Source: Candidatus Woesearchaeota archaeon CG1_02_57_44 (lineage in GTDB: Archaea > Nanobdellota > Nanobdellia > Woesearchaeales > CG1-02-57-44). Taken from it: DNA of 39,824 nucleotides. The position numbers are program-made. The DNA lies in contig MNWW01000030.1 of NCBI GenBank assembly GCA_001871415.1, forward strand, positions 1-39,824. The letters run 5' to 3'. This document shows, in pieces, positions 1 through 6,000 of this stretch (position 1 is the first letter of the stretch; the number at the start of each line of letters is the position of its first letter).

Positions 1-3000
1 CGCGCCGCGAAGCAGCGCCTCCACGAGCATCCTGCTCTGCAGGGTCTTTCCGGAGCCGTCCGTGCCTTCGATGACGATGAGCATGACGCGCAGGAGATGA
101 CAGGACATTAAGAATGTTGGGGTGCGCCTGATGCAGCACCAATTACCACCGCACACAGACGAGCAGTCATGGCTTCCCGAACAGCGCGCTCCCAATCCGC
201 ACCATGGTCGCGCCATACCGCAGCGCGATACGCCAGTCATCGCTCATGCCCAATGAGAGCACAGACCAATCACACCCGCGCGCCCGCGCGCGCCGGAACA
301 TATCCTGCGCCAACGCGAATGCACGCTCCGGATGCGCCTCTGACGCTATGCCCATGATACCTCGCACATCAAGCAGACGACAGATGCCCGCGATGCTTTC
401 GCTATCGTCCGGGCGCAGACCGTGCTTCTGCTCCTCGCCCGAGATATTCACCTGGATGAGCACGCGCATGCGCCCTGCCCCCGGTGCCCCCCGCTGGTGC
501 CTCGCGATGGCCTGCGCCAACACGACACTATCAATGGACTGGATCATCTGGAAGCGCCCGAGCACCACCCGCACCTTGTTGCGCTGCAGGGTGCCGATGA
601 AGTGCCAGCGGATATCGTGGTATGCCCGGTCGCCCAATAGCGCCCTGACCGCATCCATCCTGACCAGTGCGTCCTGCACACGGTTCTCGCCGAAATCGCG
701 GATGCCCGCGTGATACGCCGCGACAATGTCATTTGGCGTTGCCTGCTTGGTCACCGCGACGAGGTTCACGCTTTTGAGCTGCGCTTTGATGGACGCGTAG
801 GCAGCGGCATCGAAGGTCATAATAGGAAGCAATGCCCGCAAGGTAATAAAGTCTTACCCTGCACGCTCAACAATCTATCTCTCTAAAAGGGTCCAGAAAT
901 GATTGTCCAGCTTTGGATTCGCCTGCGCTATATCCACTGTCGCGATGGCGCCAGTCTCAGGACCGCTGACATACAGATGACGCAGTGTCTGCCAGTCGCT
1001 ACGACGTCGGCCGTTGCGCCGATAACGCGTCTCGATACGCTCGCTGAGCATCAGCGCATAGGTGAGTTTCTGCGCGTCCAATACATCCCTGGCCACCAAA
1101 GGCCTGAATGGCCCAAGATCCCCGCTCGCACCTACGAGGACCAGATCCAAGTCAGGCAGCGTATCCATGATACCCTCGATGCCCAGGTACTCCACGCCAT
1201 CTGCTTCATAGGGGACCACAACAGGCCGCATACACTCGTCCTGCGTCCATTGCAGCACCTGCTCCATTGCGCGGTCGCGACCATGCAAATAACCCCCGCC
1301 ATAGTGGCGCGTGGTATAAAGATCATCCTTAATGACAGCATGAAAATCACTCGTCAGATCCGATTCATGATTGTAGGCAAGAACCGTTTCGCCAGAGGGC
1401 AGAACGGCCAGTATAAATTTCTCACTGATGAACCACGCAGGAGGCGGCAATCGCGTGAACGGTGGCTCGCAGGCGGGAGGCATGGGCAAGAGAACATTTC
1501 CCCTCTACATAAGCCTTGCGCAGCCTGTAACATCCGCCCGTAGACAATACGAGGCCATCGGGCAGCCTGACGGCACAAAGTATTATAAACAAAACTTCCA
1601 GCCATAAGCAGGAGGTGATTTAATGATAGGGACTATCTGGTGGATACTTGGTCTAGTGTGCGCAGCTTGGGTCATCATCGACGTGCTGACAGCGCAAAAG
1701 AAGATGAGTTCCGGACAGAAGGCATTGTGGGTCATCCTGGCCATCGTCCTGAGCATCCTGACCGCTATCATCTATTACTTTGTGGTCAAAAAGAAGTAAG
1801 ACAGGAAAACGCAGATGCAGCAAGCGGACGAATAGACATCGTCGCGCGCTTCATCTTCACATCTGTAGGATGGCTCTGCGGCCAATGTCGCACCCATGCT
1901 TTTTTATTCTCGTATCGTCTTCTCTGCACTATGAGACTTGGTGTGCTCTTTTCAGGGGGCAAGGACAGCACGTATGCGGCTCTTCTCGCGCAGCAGGCAG
2001 GGCATGAGCTCTGCTGCCTCATCACCTTGCAGAGCGCGAATCCCGATAGCTTCATGTTCCACACCCCCAGTATCAGCGCCACTGCTGCGCAGGCCAAAGC
2101 TATGGATCTGCCCCACCTCACGGTGACCACACCAGGACAAGAGGGGCAGGAATTAAGCGAGCTTCACGACGCGCTGCGCCGTGCGCAAGAGGAGCATGGC
2201 ATCACCGGAGTCATCAGCGGCGCTGTGGCCAGCACCTACCAGGCCACCCGCGTGCAGAAAGCATGCCATGCGCTAGGACTCTGGTGCTTCAATCCGCTCT
2301 GGCAGATGGATCAGCTCGCGCTGCTGCGCGCCATCGTCGACCAAGGATTCTTGGCTGTCATCACCGCGGTCGCGGCTTCCCCGCTGGACGCGCGCTGGCT
2401 GGGACGCGCGATAGATGACGCGTTCATCTCCGATGTCGCGTCGCTCGCAACAGCACACGGCATCAATCCTGCTGGCGAAGGCGGCGAGTTCGAATCATTG
2501 GTGCTCGACTGTCCGTTGTTCAAACACCCACTGCGCGTGGCGTCTTATCAGGATAGCGGCGCTGGCCACGCGTGGCGCAGGGAGGTGCGGCTTGAGGCTG
2601 GCATTTCTGAAGACAAGCAACATAGCCCGCGTGAAGAGAATACTGTCCAGCCTCGGCAGACAGCACAGACAAATAATCCAATAGAACAGAAGCAAACAGG
2701 AAAACAACGCCCCACTGTGCTGCTCATCAGCACATGCGCAGAGCCACTGAGCGAGCGCGAGTTCGTCGATCCTTTCGCAAGGATAGTGGAGCGCTTCGGG
2801 GCGCGATGGATAAAGAGGCATCACACTGAACTTGACGACAGGCATGGACCGGCCAAGGAACGATCTGAGGAGGAGCAGACTGACCAACAGGATGCTGACG
2901 CGGTGATCATCTGCGGCACTGCGCTCGCGGATAATGCGTATCTTGAGGGCTCAACCTTGCCCAGCGTCCTGGAGTGGCTGCGCGCATGGGATGGGCCCTT

Positions 3001-6000
3001 GCTTGGCATCTGCGCGGGCATGCAGCTTCTCGGACTCGCATACGGCGGCGAGCTGCGAGCGGGGCTGGAGATAGGATTGTATGATGAAGAATTCGAAGAC
3101 GGCATATCGGTTGATGGATTCGAAGACGGAGACTCTGGTGATGGAGAGGCTCCGGGACGCGAGTCAGGATTCCTTGGACTCACGGGCGCGCAACAGGTCT
3201 GGCATCTGCATGGCAAATATACTGCATTCAACCGCTTGCTGTTCAGCGTCATGGCGGAAAGCCAGAAGCGTACAGACAGCAGGTCCATCATCCAAGCCGT
3301 CAGGCACAAGACATTGCCGCACTACGGCGCGCTGTTTCATCCTGAGGTGCGCCAGGAGCAGTGCATCCAAGGATTCATCTCGCTCATCCGAGCACGCCCA
3401 GATGCTCAAAGACCCTGAGCGCGCCAGACCCTACCGGCACCCTGCGCTCGAAATAGAAGCAATCGTCACCGAGCCATACCTTGTCGGATGCCCTTGTGTC
3501 GGCCGCGCTACCGCGGTACAGCGGTATAGCGCCCGGCGCGCCACCGTTGTCCATGGCCTGATAGTGGAACATGAGATAGGTATCACCAGTGGTCAGGCGG
3601 CAAGAGGCCATGCGCTCATCCTTTCGCTCAGGATAGTCGTGCAAGACAACAGACCCGCCGCCTGCCAGCAGGTTGTGGAATGCCTGGCAGAAAGCATTGA
3701 CATCGATGTCAGCCAGGTGCTGGGCACTGTCGCGCGCCTGCGCGAGCAGCGCATCAAGGTCAGGATGTGGGCTCATCAGCAGCAGGATTCAGTCCATCCA
3801 TTTAAAGTTTTAGCAGGGAACGTATTAGCAGGGGCCTGACGAATGATACCTGATGAGAGATATGCTTATAAACATCCTGCCCGTCAACGGCCCAGGCAGC
3901 ATCCTGCGAAGGCAACCACTATGGGCATGATACAAGAGTTCATGGAATTCCTCAAGGAGTACAAGGTGCTCGCACTCGCTGTGGCGTTCATCATCGGTGT
4001 CGCGGCGAGTGCTCTTGTCAAGTCCCTGGTAGACAATGTCATCATGCCCATCGTGACGCCGTTCATCCCGGGCGGCGCGTGGAAGACCGCTACCTTCGCG
4101 ATGGGGCCCATCGTCATCGGCTGGGGCGCGTTCGTGGGAGAGCTGCTCAACTTCATCATCATCGCGCTCGTCGTCTTCCTCATCGCCAAGAAGATGATGA
4201 AAGAGGAGAAGGTAGCGAAGAAATAGGCCGGGACATCTTGGTCGTTGGTGAACCGCGACATCCTTCTTTCCTTTCGCCACCCGGCATATCTTCCCTTTCC
4301 AGCCCGGTTCTTACATCACTCCTGACCGCCCGCGCTCACGCACGCACCTGTCCATCACCATGCACCTCCCACTTGCTGCTGACCAACGCATCAAGGCCGA
4401 TGGGGCCGCGGCAGTGCACCTTCTGTGTGCTGATGCCAAGCTCCGCGCCCATACCGAACTGACCGCCGTCCGTGAAGCGCGTTGATGCGTTCGCGTAGAC
4501 GACCGCGGCGTCGACATCCCGCAGGAACAGGTCCTGCGCCTCCTTGTCTTCGGTGATGATTGCTTCACTATGACCCGTGCCATAGCGCTCGATGTGGCGC
4601 ATGGCCTGCGCCATCGACGGGATGACACGCAGCGCGAGGATTGGTGCAAGGTACTCTGTGCGCCAGTCCGCAGCGGCCGCGGCTTCGCACGTGATGATTC
4701 GCTGACAGCGCGCGCATCCGCGCAGGACAATGCCCCGCAGCTCATAAAGCTCATGCTGCAGCAGCGGCAGGAATTCTCTGGCCACACGCTGATGCACCAG
4801 CACGGTCTCGACCGCATTGCAGACACCCGGACGCTGCGTCTTGGCATTGACGATTATCCGGATAGCCTTGGCCATGTCCGCGTCCTCGTGCACGTAGATA
4901 TGGCAATTACCCCCTCCTGATGCCAGCACCGGCGCGCGCGACCTGCGACGCACCAGTGCGATGAGGCGCTCGGAACCCCGGGGGACCATCAGATCGATCT
5001 CACTTGACGCGAGCATCGCAGGCAATCGCTCCCTGCCCACCAGCTGCACAAGGTGTCCTGCGTCCCTGCCTATCCCCGCACGCATCAGTCCCTCCCGAAT
5101 AGCACCGACCATCGCCGTGTTTGTCGCGATTGCCTCGCTGCCGCCCTTGAGCAGCACCGCTGATCCTGCCCTGATGCACATGGCCGCAGCGTCTGCTGTC
5201 ACATCGGGTCGCGACTCGTAGATCATGCCGATGACACCCAGAGGCACAGATCTTCGCTGCAGATACAGCCCATTTTGCAGAGTTCTCTGCTCGAGCACCC
5301 TGTCCACAGGATCCTGCATCTCAGCTATGGCACGCATGGAGCCGAGCAGCGCGTCTATCCTATGTCGATCCAATCTCAGGCGGTCCAGCATGGTCGCGTC
5401 AAGGTCCATCGCGTCTCGGAGGTCCTGCTCATTGGCAGCCAGTATGCCAGCAGCGTGAGCAGCCAGCGCGTCGGCCATGCCATGCACCACGGCTCTTCGG
5501 TCCATGCGCCGCAGATTACGCTGCGCAGCCTTCGCTGCCGCTGCTTCACGCACAGTCATCACCTCCCTGCTCGCTTCTCGCGGCTCTCGCATCATGCACG
5601 ATCATCACCTCCACAGGCAGCGCCACCTGTCCTGCATGCGAGATATGCTCCTCGCACCACATCCTGGAGCGCCTCATCCACTGTCGCTATCCTGCGCAGC
5701 CCCGCTTCAGTCGTGCCGCCGGGCGACGCCACCTTCCGCACGATGGACTGCGCGTCGCCGACGCGCATCATCTTCACTCCTGCCTCAAAGGCATGCAGGA
5801 CCGCTTGCCTGGCCTCCCTCGCCCCGATAGCGCCTCCGGGCAATGCCTTTGCCATGACATCCATGAGATGAACAGCGAAAGCGATGCCGCTGGCCGAGAG
5901 CGCTGTGTACGCGTCTATCTCGTGTTCTTGACATACACACACCCTGCCGACGCTGCTGAGCACCTCCTGCGCCAGTGCGATATCGTCGACCGTGCACTCC

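Follow-up and report, generated by a model that had tools for sequence, protein, structure and literature searches.

Within the window (the whole analysed stretch of 39,824 nucleotides from Candidatus Woesearchaeota archaeon CG1_02_57_44), a single uninterrupted reading frame of 495 aa, from ATG at 1931 to TGA at 3418, encodes Dph6 (diphthine–ammonia ligase) joined through a linker to a class-I glutamine amidotransferase (GAT-I; Table 1). The survey's finding of both domains in one gene with an intact Cys-His-Glu triad was borne out by the frame, the Pfam and TIGR03679 matches and the motifs, since SGGKDS, GICAG and HPE are all present where it had placed them. The Dph6 match to PF01902 covers aa 1–219, as reported there, but scores 178.3 rather than 177 bits; the Dph6 equivalog TIGR03679 gave 247.9 bits (curated cut-off 197.3) and PF00117 matched aa 314–476 with 48.8 bits (gathering cut-off 22.8). 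Pfam detected neither an N-terminal class-II GATase nor an Asn-synthase PP-loop domain in the fused protein.

Table 1. Features of the fused dph6–GAT-I gene (positions in the window)
Feature	Position	Strand	Evidence
Fused Dph6 + linker + GAT-I gene, 495 aa	1931..3418	+	Open frame, Pfam/NCBIfam matches, junction-spanning contig
Dph6 PP-loop ATP pyrophosphatase domain, aa 1-224	1931..2602	+	PF01902 178 bits; TIGR03679 above cut-off; 3rjz Z 28.5, rmsd 1.6, 205 aligned
PP-loop SGGKDS, aa 8-13	1952..1969	+	Same letters in all 21 aligned fusions
Dph6 surface predicted to dock the GAT, aa ~102-127 (helix 102-114 + CFNPLWQ 119-125)	2234..2311	+	Modelled interface of homologous split pair L069; motif counts
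GEGGEFE, aa 182-188, incl. Dph6 active-site E183, E186, E188	2474..2494	+	Residues as named for PF0828 in passages of PMC3541065
Disordered linker, about 37 aa	2600..2710	+	Low pLDDT, domain envelopes, GC
Class-I GATase domain of Dph6-linked family, aa 261-487	2711..3391	+	PF00117, alignment, structure comparison, family model 171 bits
Family-specific insert/helix LSEREFVDP, aa 273-281 (E277, F278, P281), predicted interface	2747..2773	+	Complex model, tree alignment, residue conservation
CGTALAD, aa 328-334, presumed oxyanion strand; family counterpart of GMP synthase SGGP strand	2912..2932	+	Alignment
Nucleophile elbow GICAG (Cys361), aa 359-363	3005..3019	+	Sequence, alignment
His470-Pro-Glu472 of catalytic triad, aa 470-472	3338..3346	+	Sequence, alignment

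A longer N-terminus starting from GTG 1640 (592 aa) was rejected, since a PLDc_N membrane gene lies at 1623–1799 and all homologues begin at the equivalent of ATG 1931. The junction is real and not an assembly error, because an independent contig (run X4 of another study) spans 1800–3046 with zero differing letters and zero gaps. The linker, previously put at about 90 aa, shrank to about 37 aa (aa ~224–260), as the GAT fold begins at residue ~261 according to the 8rp0 alignment and pLDDT. Residues 230–256 form the only low-confidence stretch (pLDDT <50) of the AF2 model (pTM 0.85, pLDDT 83.4); the domain envelopes lie 38 aa apart (15–71 across 45 fused entries), and the GC content of the linker is 46% versus 59% for the whole gene.

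From residue 261 onward the GAT fold superposes on 8rp0 (Z 21.7, rmsd 2.2, 175 aligned). Gln365, four residues after Cys361, and His427 of the His-x-x strand, which we take to be glutamine-binding residues, are present, while the Asp of the GMP synthase SH.D motif is absent. This copy keeps twelve of the twelve scored family positions, carries two acidic insertions of its own (~304–320 and ~393–412) and is long-branched in the trees. The Dph6 part retains S40, E74, Y103, Q104, A149, E183, E186, and E188, with F41 replacing Y45 of PF0828, for which passages of PMC3541065 name the EF-2-facing and active-site residues.

As had been noted, the 82%-complete assembly yields no Dph6 match other than the fused protein. 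The upstream diphthamide pathway is complete: Dph2 is encoded in two pieces (contigs C4 and C57) and Dph5 on C44, and the EF-2 on C10 carries HEDTIHRG, presumably the motif of the diphthamide His. Glutamine synthetase and separate GuaA, HisH, CarA, and PyrG GATs are encoded as well. An ammonium transporter gene is also found in the genome. The AsnB-like PP-loop/alkyltransferase gene on C20 was recovered, PF00733 being joined to PF01035 (alkyltransferase) without GAT-II by Pfam. No functional tie to the proBA/proC, mscL, and YggS-like neighbours emerged from the neighbour clusters that are common at other loci.

The homologue search was reproducible (336 matches); among the 120 listed, PF01902+PF00117 is carried by this protein's own entry and 19 others, with P0025 joining them as a twentieth by alignment. 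The GAT-I partner constitutes a family of its own, below every NCBIfam cut-off and, at E<=1e-30, containing no fewer than 275 clusters of 50% identity. For 41/41 members the nearest named match is PRK00758 (GMP synthase subunit A; best E 1.2e-21), but this protein reaches only 43.5 bits with PRK00758 (cut-off 198) and 38.7 with TIGR00888 (cut-off 172.15), and the GAT of the split pair L069 67.9 and 64.9 bits, respectively. The first GAT matches in Foldseek are GuaAA structures and the closest folds are glutaminase subunits. In the GAT tree, the 36 Dph6-linked rows group with a support of 86 on an unstarred branch, and four GuaA-like rows sit outside them in a starred clade of their own (98). 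The triad is intact in 229/235 members at ~35–45% identity; of the six that lost it, all keep the EF..P interface motif and at least three (L003, L034, and L102) still adjoin dph6. Gln occupies the position four residues past the Cys in only 190/235 (His in 20, Glu in 16), so glutamine specificity is uncertain.

The linkage of the two genes was followed in 301 evenly drawn genomes of the phylum, 292 with Dph6. The GAT-I family is present in 59, all with Dph6, and is linked to dph6 in 54 of these (5 fused, 39 within 200 bp, and 10 within 3.5 kb downstream); three weak matches (G258, G164, and G296), which have no insert and branch outside the clade and were therefore rejected as members, are left out of this count. 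GAT-I abuts dph6 in 33 of the 80 loci inspected, with overlapping stop and start codons in 25 of the 33 (gap −4), while the remaining neighbours of the pair vary among lineages. In Methanotrichaceae, a family that includes cultured members, 44/51 genomes searched have the GAT-I family, and 13/13 loci inspected were adjacent or fused. Among Woesearchaeales, 45/213 genomes with Dph6 have it. A short Dph6 without detected GAT-I occurs in 120 of the 292 Dph6-bearing genomes, so the partner is dispensable and glutamine dependence cannot be a general trait; re-searching 36 short-Dph6 genomes (E 1e-6) gave seven weak matches, none having the N-terminal motif at a family-level score. The survey had assigned the GAT-II+AsnB form to most Woesearchaeota, yet among Dph6-bearing genomes of the same order a long Dph6 frame (≥600 aa) occurs in only 77 of 213; that majority arose because the 272–867-aa length range of the homologue search excludes the ~225-aa stand-alone Dph6.

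The fusions, treated earlier as one family, have several origins. Starred branches force at least 4–5 changes between the split and fused states, and a single origin of the GAT-I fusions was rejected by the AU test (p-AU 0.0002). We concluded that the Dph6–GAT-I fusion arose repeatedly from a two-gene operon, the split form being commoner, and that the fusion of this genome is an independent joining of an operon whose genes usually overlap at stop and start. The GAT-I-linked Dph6 clade (98) is separate from the AsnB/GAT-II-linked clade (97–100), and GAT-I co-occurs with the long Dph6 in 0/96 long-Dph6 genomes, or in 2/96 if the three weak matches are counted, two of which sit in such genomes. 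This exclusion is one clade split and not many events. The idea of two recruitments from unrelated folds thus fits the separate, exclusive clades (98 and 97), but as one event each.

The contact between the two proteins was modelled on the split pair L069, not on the more divergent fused copy of this genome. The complex gave an ipSAE of 0.91 in three runs versus 0.01 for the best control, with 100% agreement of contacts and a partner pLDDT of 92; the mark used was reached by 116/157 solved and 2/215 mismatched pairs, counts that are only rough for the own alignments used here. The predicted interface involves E16, F17, P20, L62, G109, and E167, which are 95–100% conserved in the family, and covers the GAT active-site face (residues 61–63, 106–110, 128–130, and 167–169). 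Split GAT-I and Dph6 are therefore predicted to bind through conserved family residues. In raw counts, the Dph6 interface motif occurs in 77/81 proteins with GAT and in 9/33 without it. Decay of this motif after GAT loss was also considered and discarded, only three independent starred pairs being available (median p=1). Foldseek and structural-alignment searches found no solved Dph6–GAT complex, GMP synthases aligning by one domain only.

The fused protein is likely a glutamine-dependent diphthamide synthetase in a single chain, with a mode of action resembling that of two-subunit GMP synthase. As modelled, the GAT would dock active-site face first on Dph6 helix 102–114 and CFNPLWQ via its family-specific LxxxEFVxP helix. 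By analogy with GMP synthase, Dph6 would bind ATP and diphthine-EF-2 and adenylate the diphthine carboxylate; this would activate the GAT, whose Cys would form a gamma-glutamyl thioester and release NH3, which in turn would cross the interface and attack the acyl-adenylate to give diphthamide, AMP, PPi, and Glu. Organisms with a Dph6-linked GAT-I probably take the final diphthamide nitrogen from glutamine, because many other archaea encode the GAT as a small overlapping gene. Conserved linkage, the interface, and the 229/235 triads give the proposed glutamine dependence a better footing than before, though not as a general trait. Free ammonia could probably still be used by Dph6, which would explain the frequent GAT loss.

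The strongest competing explanation is that glutamine or a different amide (for instance a gamma-glutamyl amide or asparagine) is hydrolysed by a GAT uncoupled from Dph6, with no closed channel, only raising local ammonia. It would suit the variable residue four positions past the Cys, the gamma-glutamyl peptidases among the structural neighbours (Z 17–18) and the frequent loss, but coupling and channelling are the norm for glutamine amidotransferases, according to passages of PMC10526850. Given also the confident, conserved modelled interface over the GAT active-site face, we regard it as unlikely. Methyl-diphthine is demethylated by Dph7 in eukaryotes, and triad hydrolases are able to cleave esters; the Cys-His-Glu domain might be a Dph7-like esterase removing the methyl ester from methylated diphthine. 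Over-methylation could occur here, as parts of bioRxiv 10.1101/262600 report eukaryotic Dph5 to be closest to woesearchaeal Dph5. However, in the model Dph6 covers the GAT active-site face, which would hinder access of the EF-2-bound residue, the family is missing from most Woesearchaeales with Dph6, the GAT-II-bearing form replaces it in a separate clade, and the nearest folds are glutaminases, making this role quite improbable. Slightly less credit is due to a GAT that has become structural or regulatory, stabilising Dph6 or sensing glutamine while free ammonia supplies the nitrogen: the triad-less members with EF..P and the long branch and acidic insertions of this copy would agree with it, but triad retention across such divergent sequences and the complete set of scored positions here would not. 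Strongly disfavoured, and the least probable of all, is that the domain was displaced from some other pathway, as GMP synthase subunit A, HisH, or TrpG, and sits beside dph6 by chance: despite the PRK00758 and GuaAA likenesses, scores fall far under the cut-offs, this genome and G301–G304 have separate GuaA/GuaAA-like GATs outside the family in the tree, GuaA-type GATs lack the family insert, and the pair persists in many unrelated gene neighbourhoods.

Beyond the glutamine-dependent synthetase itself, a wider reading seems to us somewhat better than an even bet: the new class-I glutaminase family would be a dedicated archaeal Dph6 subunit, allosterically coupled and ammonia-channelling, with a modified residue on folded EF-2 as acceptor; separate Dph6 clades would each have met their nitrogen need on their own, drawing on unrelated folds (class-I GAT, class-II GAT/AsnB, and, in many eukaryotes, RidA); fusion of the GAT-I pair would have happened at least 4–5 times, including here. 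In the literature searched, with most subscription journals outside its coverage, no class-I GATase with Dph6 was found; PMC3541065 was the sole relevant paper, and neither "amidotransferase" nor "glutamine" occurs in its three supplements. For the last diphthamide step, passages of PMC3541065 and PMC3585130 name ammonia as the nitrogen source and suggest variation from fusions only. A specific small Dph6 partner with a predicted binding surface can now be named, and natural single-chain versions make the nitrogen source testable. If true, a family that most resembles GMP synthase subunit A but scores under its cut-off, and that occurs in most Methanotrichaceae genomes searched, would gain a function, and a protein-acceptor case would be added to the coupling, ammonia-channelling amidotransferases.

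Compared with known Dph6 (EC 6.3.1.14; PH1257 2d13, PF0828 3rjz/3rk1, and yeast YLR143w), the N-terminal domain passes the cut-offs and superposes on 3rjz, but a class-I glutaminase is attached here, whereas passages of PMC3585130 describe Dph6 as ammonia-using. The AsnB–Dph6 fusion is similar in having a glutaminase fused to Dph6, suggested as ammonia source in parts of PMC3541065; it differs in that its GAT-II is an unrelated, N-terminal Ntn-type fold accompanied by a second PP-loop domain, its surface motif is mostly xFSPLWH (0/86 with [NC]PxW[QKL]), and it belongs to the separate Dph6 clade, with the GAT-I family seen in none of its 96 genomes. Eukaryotic Dph6–RidA fusions also carry an additional C-terminal module suggested to supply ammonia, and passages of PMC3585130 report a RidA-type module as needed for yeast function, but RidA has an imine deaminase fold and is not a glutaminase. 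A parallel in design is GMP synthase (GuaAA+GuaAB or GuaA), which likewise combines a class-I triad GATase with a PP-loop adenylating synthetase in split and fused forms and has the first GAT helix at the interface (in passages of PMC10526850; here as predicted by the model). The acceptor there is XMP and here, as proposed, a modified residue on EF-2, the domain order is reversed, SGGP stands in place of GT[AS]LxD, and the family-specific insert is found only here.

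Dph6 and the class-I glutamine amidotransferase (GAT) are encoded in the window by one open frame, and the identity of both domains was evident from the Pfam search of the protein, in which Diphthami_syn_2 covered residues 1–219 (178.3 bits) and GATase covered residues 314–476 (48.8 bits against a cut-off of 22.8); TIGR03679 matched with 247.9 bits (cut-off 197.3). The PP-loop and the GICAG and HPE motifs, with their catalytic residues intact, lie where the survey's finding had placed them, and the gene was confirmed as the sole PF01902 match of the genome, which is 82% complete. 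The junction between Dph6 and GAT is real, because a contig of run X4, from a different study, covered positions 1800–3046 with zero differences. The AlphaFold model of the protein, built on a 21-sequence alignment (A1), had a pLDDT of 83.4 and a pTM of 0.85, with disorder at residues 230–256, 304–310, and 393–409. The linker had been described as approximately 90 aa long; since the GAT fold begins near residue 261 by structural alignment, its length is about 37 aa instead, inside the range of 15–71 aa found across 45 fused entries.

The pathway context was found in the same genome, which encodes EF-2 with HEDTIHRG, Dph5, and a Dph2 in two pieces; a passage of bioRxiv 10.1101/262600 describes split Dph1/2 for DPANN. 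The genome also codes for glutamine synthetase and an ammonium transporter, which adjoin each other (C27:1–2792). Of the five further PF00117 matches, labeled by reading their sequences, one reads as a stand-alone GAT and the others as CarA, CTP synthase, full-length GuaA, and HisH, thus the fused GAT is unnecessary for GMP, histidine, CTP, and carbamoyl-phosphate synthesis. By Pfam, the fusion gene is surrounded by a YggS-like alanine-racemase-fold protein, MscL, and proline genes, none of which recurred among the common neighbors of the other dph6 loci. The features of the window are collected in the table.

Features in the window
Feature	Position	Strand	Remark
dph6–GAT fusion gene, single frame of 495 aa	1931–3418	+	
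204-aa ORF	875–1489	-	zero Pfam matches
130-aa ORF	3384–3776	-	zero Pfam matches; 35-base overlap with the 3′ end of the fusion gene
proB-proC-proA proline biosynthesis cluster (AA_kinase, P5CR, aldehyde dehydrogenase family)	4336–7291	-	Woesearchaeales-type genome
Run of large surface proteins (≤2122 aa) with Ig-like/fn3/CARDB/MG2 domains	16484–31759	-	
AAA ATPase and unknown 208-aa gene, transcribed divergently from a CARF-like/HTH regulator (HFX_2341-like)	36938–39708	- (ATPase and 208-aa gene)	

A Dph6-motif scan of genome contigs gave at least 600 matches, of which at least 335 were confirmed, and the best 80 of them, a set skewed toward loci matching the GAT part as well, comprised 2 fused loci, 33 with a separate GAT gene abutting dph6 (in 25 of these, the stop and start codons overlap), 10 with the GAT 0.4–2.7 kb downstream, and 35 with no GAT within the locus. 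Record titles in this set name Woesearchaeota, Pacearchaeota, Bathyarchaeota, Thermoplasmatota, Methanosarcinales, Hadarchaeota, and Thermococci; these are depositors' labels and may err, as L055, a locus titled Methanosarcinales, grouped with a Woesearchaeales Dph6 in a 64-row IQ-TREE tree. A less biased sample was formed by 300 genomes drawn evenly from the phylum and the window's own. Dph6 was found in 292 of these 301 genomes and matches to the GAT model at E ≤ 1e-25 in 62; three weak matches without the family insert, which fell outside the clade, were removed, leaving 59. The GAT was fused in 5 of the 59, lay within 200 bp of dph6 in 39 and up to 3.5 kb downstream in 10, was 42 kb off in one, and was on a different contig in four (at least two of them at contig ends); the model was trained on dph6-adjacent GATs, some training loci of which may be in the sample, and the search was blind to position. 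Two unpublished genomes (G243 and G244) contributed only to the Dph6-positive, GAT-negative count. Of 51 genomes from the family that includes the Methanothrix locus L004, the GAT model matched 44, 7 with fusion-length frames; at each of the 13 loci looked at, the GAT was adjacent or fused to Dph6. Two Methanotrichaceae genomes, G301 (C10 and C437, both fused) and G309, held two GAT copies each, by duplication or a binning mix. Among 1.84 billion representatives searched, 275 matched at E ≤ 1e-30, and the best 150 of these were almost all stand-alone proteins of approximately 165–225 aa. The window fusion is one instance of a conserved Dph6/GAT pair.

Judged by sequence, the Dph6-linked GATs are a separate family. 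None of 41 members came near any NCBIfam cut-off, the nearest model being GMP synthase subunit A, and a quick tree placed 36 Dph6-linked GATs in one group (support 86, not starred), separate from GuaA/GuaAA-like, HisH, CarA, and other GATs. The family insert follows the first strand and ends in EFVxP; at the place where GMP synthase has SGGP, the family has GT[AS]LxD. E16, P20, G59, and D64 were conserved in 232, 230, 233, and 226 of the 235 distinct members, and the catalytic Cys, His, and Glu in 230, 231, and 235, with a complete triad in 229 and a broken one in the other 6. These six members (L003, L034, L102, P0276, P0278, and P0282) have lost the catalytic Cys and/or His and kept the EFVxP interface motif; three of them are known to adjoin dph6.

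Complex prediction was carried out with the pair from L069, a locus where dph6 and the GAT are separate genes, using a 41-row alignment per chain. The prediction reached 0.91 in three runs versus 0.01 for the best control, with 100% contact agreement and a partner pLDDT of 92; of 157 solved complexes, 116 attain the benchmark mark, as do 2 of 215 mismatched pairs, both figures being only approximate with the present alignments. The model supports Dph6–GAT binding, with the caveat that the halves of a gene pair may pass through likeness to solved structures. Neither structure search returned a Dph6–GAT complex among solved structures, and GMP synthases aligned via the GAT domain alone. In the predicted docking, Dph6 101–126 (a helix and CFNPLWQ) would face GAT 10–23, 61–63, 106–110, 128–130, and 167–169, that is, conserved family residues and the active-site rim. 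The [NC]PxW[QKL] motif of Dph6 occurred in all 46 fused sequences, in 51 of 53 GAT-linked and 14 of 34 unlinked ones, and in none of 86 GAT-II-type (class-II GATase plus AsnB-like PP-loop domain) or 9 AsnB-only sequences, redundant rows counted; its co-variation with the GAT was non-significant on independent tree pairs (three starred pairs).

The history of the fusions was followed in a 160-row FastTree tree (30 of 86 GAT-II rows retained, near-duplicates left out) and a 64-row IQ-TREE tree. AsnB/GAT-II-associated Dph6 formed one clade (support 100 and 97, respectively), and GAT-I-associated Dph6 with its GAT-less relatives a second (98, IQ-TREE); the outgroup did not fall cleanly on one side of a branch, so these trees do not set the order of events. 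The window Dph6, which has a long branch and unusual composition, was the sole fusion within a starred clade whose other members are split or lone Dph6 (clade support 99 in FastTree, 97 in IQ-TREE). The starred branches require the fused state to have changed at least 4–5 times, and one common origin for 12 fusions was rejected (p-AU 0.0002). By frame length, the 292 Dph6 genomes divided into 96 long (≥600 aa), 17 intermediate (the one looked at was AsnB+Dph6), 5 GAT-I fusion, and 174 short forms; the GAT-I family occurred in 54 of the 174 short-Dph6 genomes and in none of the 96 long-form or 17 intermediate-form genomes. The GAT-II form had been attributed to most Woesearchaeota, which did not hold, as the long form, called by frame length in line with the homologues' Pfam lists, was present in 77 of 213 same-order genomes. 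A separate AsnB PP-loop neighbor was seen at 6 of 40 short, GAT-less loci inspected, and the five such loci in the tree all fell within the AsnB clade. Re-searching 36 GAT-less genomes at E 1e-6 turned up 7 weak matches, all to other GATs and none to a member of the family, so real GAT losses are common. A divergent group of short Dph6 within the phylum (L107–L116), scoring 100–165 bits against the Dph6 model, had no nearby partner of either kind.

Several other architectures were met. In the window's genome, a gene directly downstream of guaA (GMP synthase; gene at C20:9830–11107, minus strand; L147:1831–3108) joins an AsnB-like PP-loop domain (SGGVDS, without GAT-II) to an O6-methylguanine-DNA methyltransferase DNA-binding domain; compared with the AsnB module in long Dph6 proteins, it scored 200 bits. 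The AsnB-type domain stays with Dph6 while GAT-II is unseen in L105, L106, and 15 more genomes, and in L117, L125–L127, L129, and L132, either fused or as a separate neighbor, sometimes in opposite orientation, hinting that this second PP-loop enzyme may have its own role beside Dph6. Three 400-aa proteins (P0018, P0020, and P0028) join Dph6 to a C-terminal HD domain (HD_4, RelA/SpoT hydrolase-like) and are nested inside the GAT-I-linked Dph6 clade, and the 689-aa P0022 extends Dph6–GAT-I by a C-terminal class-I SAM methyltransferase domain.

Taken together, Dph6 and the GAT probably carry out GMP-synthase-like, glutamine-dependent diphthamide synthesis. By analogy with GMP synthase (passages of PMC10526850) and with the adenylate mechanism proposed for Dph6 (passages of PMC3541065 and PMC3585130), diphthine would be adenylated, the glutaminase activated, NH3 transferred over the Dph6–GAT interface, and the amide formed. 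Most amidotransferases also accept free ammonia (a passage of PMC10526850), so the observed GAT losses would be allowed. That the GAT is instead an uncoupled hydrolase, or one of another amide, is improbable; a Dph7-like esterase is more doubtful still, and a purely structural subunit slightly more so again. Chance co-location beside dph6 is the least credible explanation. The glutamine-dependent reading of the Dph6/GAT-I pair comes with a clear test. The passages of PMC3541065 on Dph6 fusions describe only AsnB/GAT-II and RidA, and neither the literature searched, which leaves out most subscription journals, nor a term search of the three supplements of that paper yielded a description of a class-I GATase paired with Dph6. 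A triad GATase working with a PP-loop amidoligase follows a known logic; its pairing with Dph6 would be the new part.
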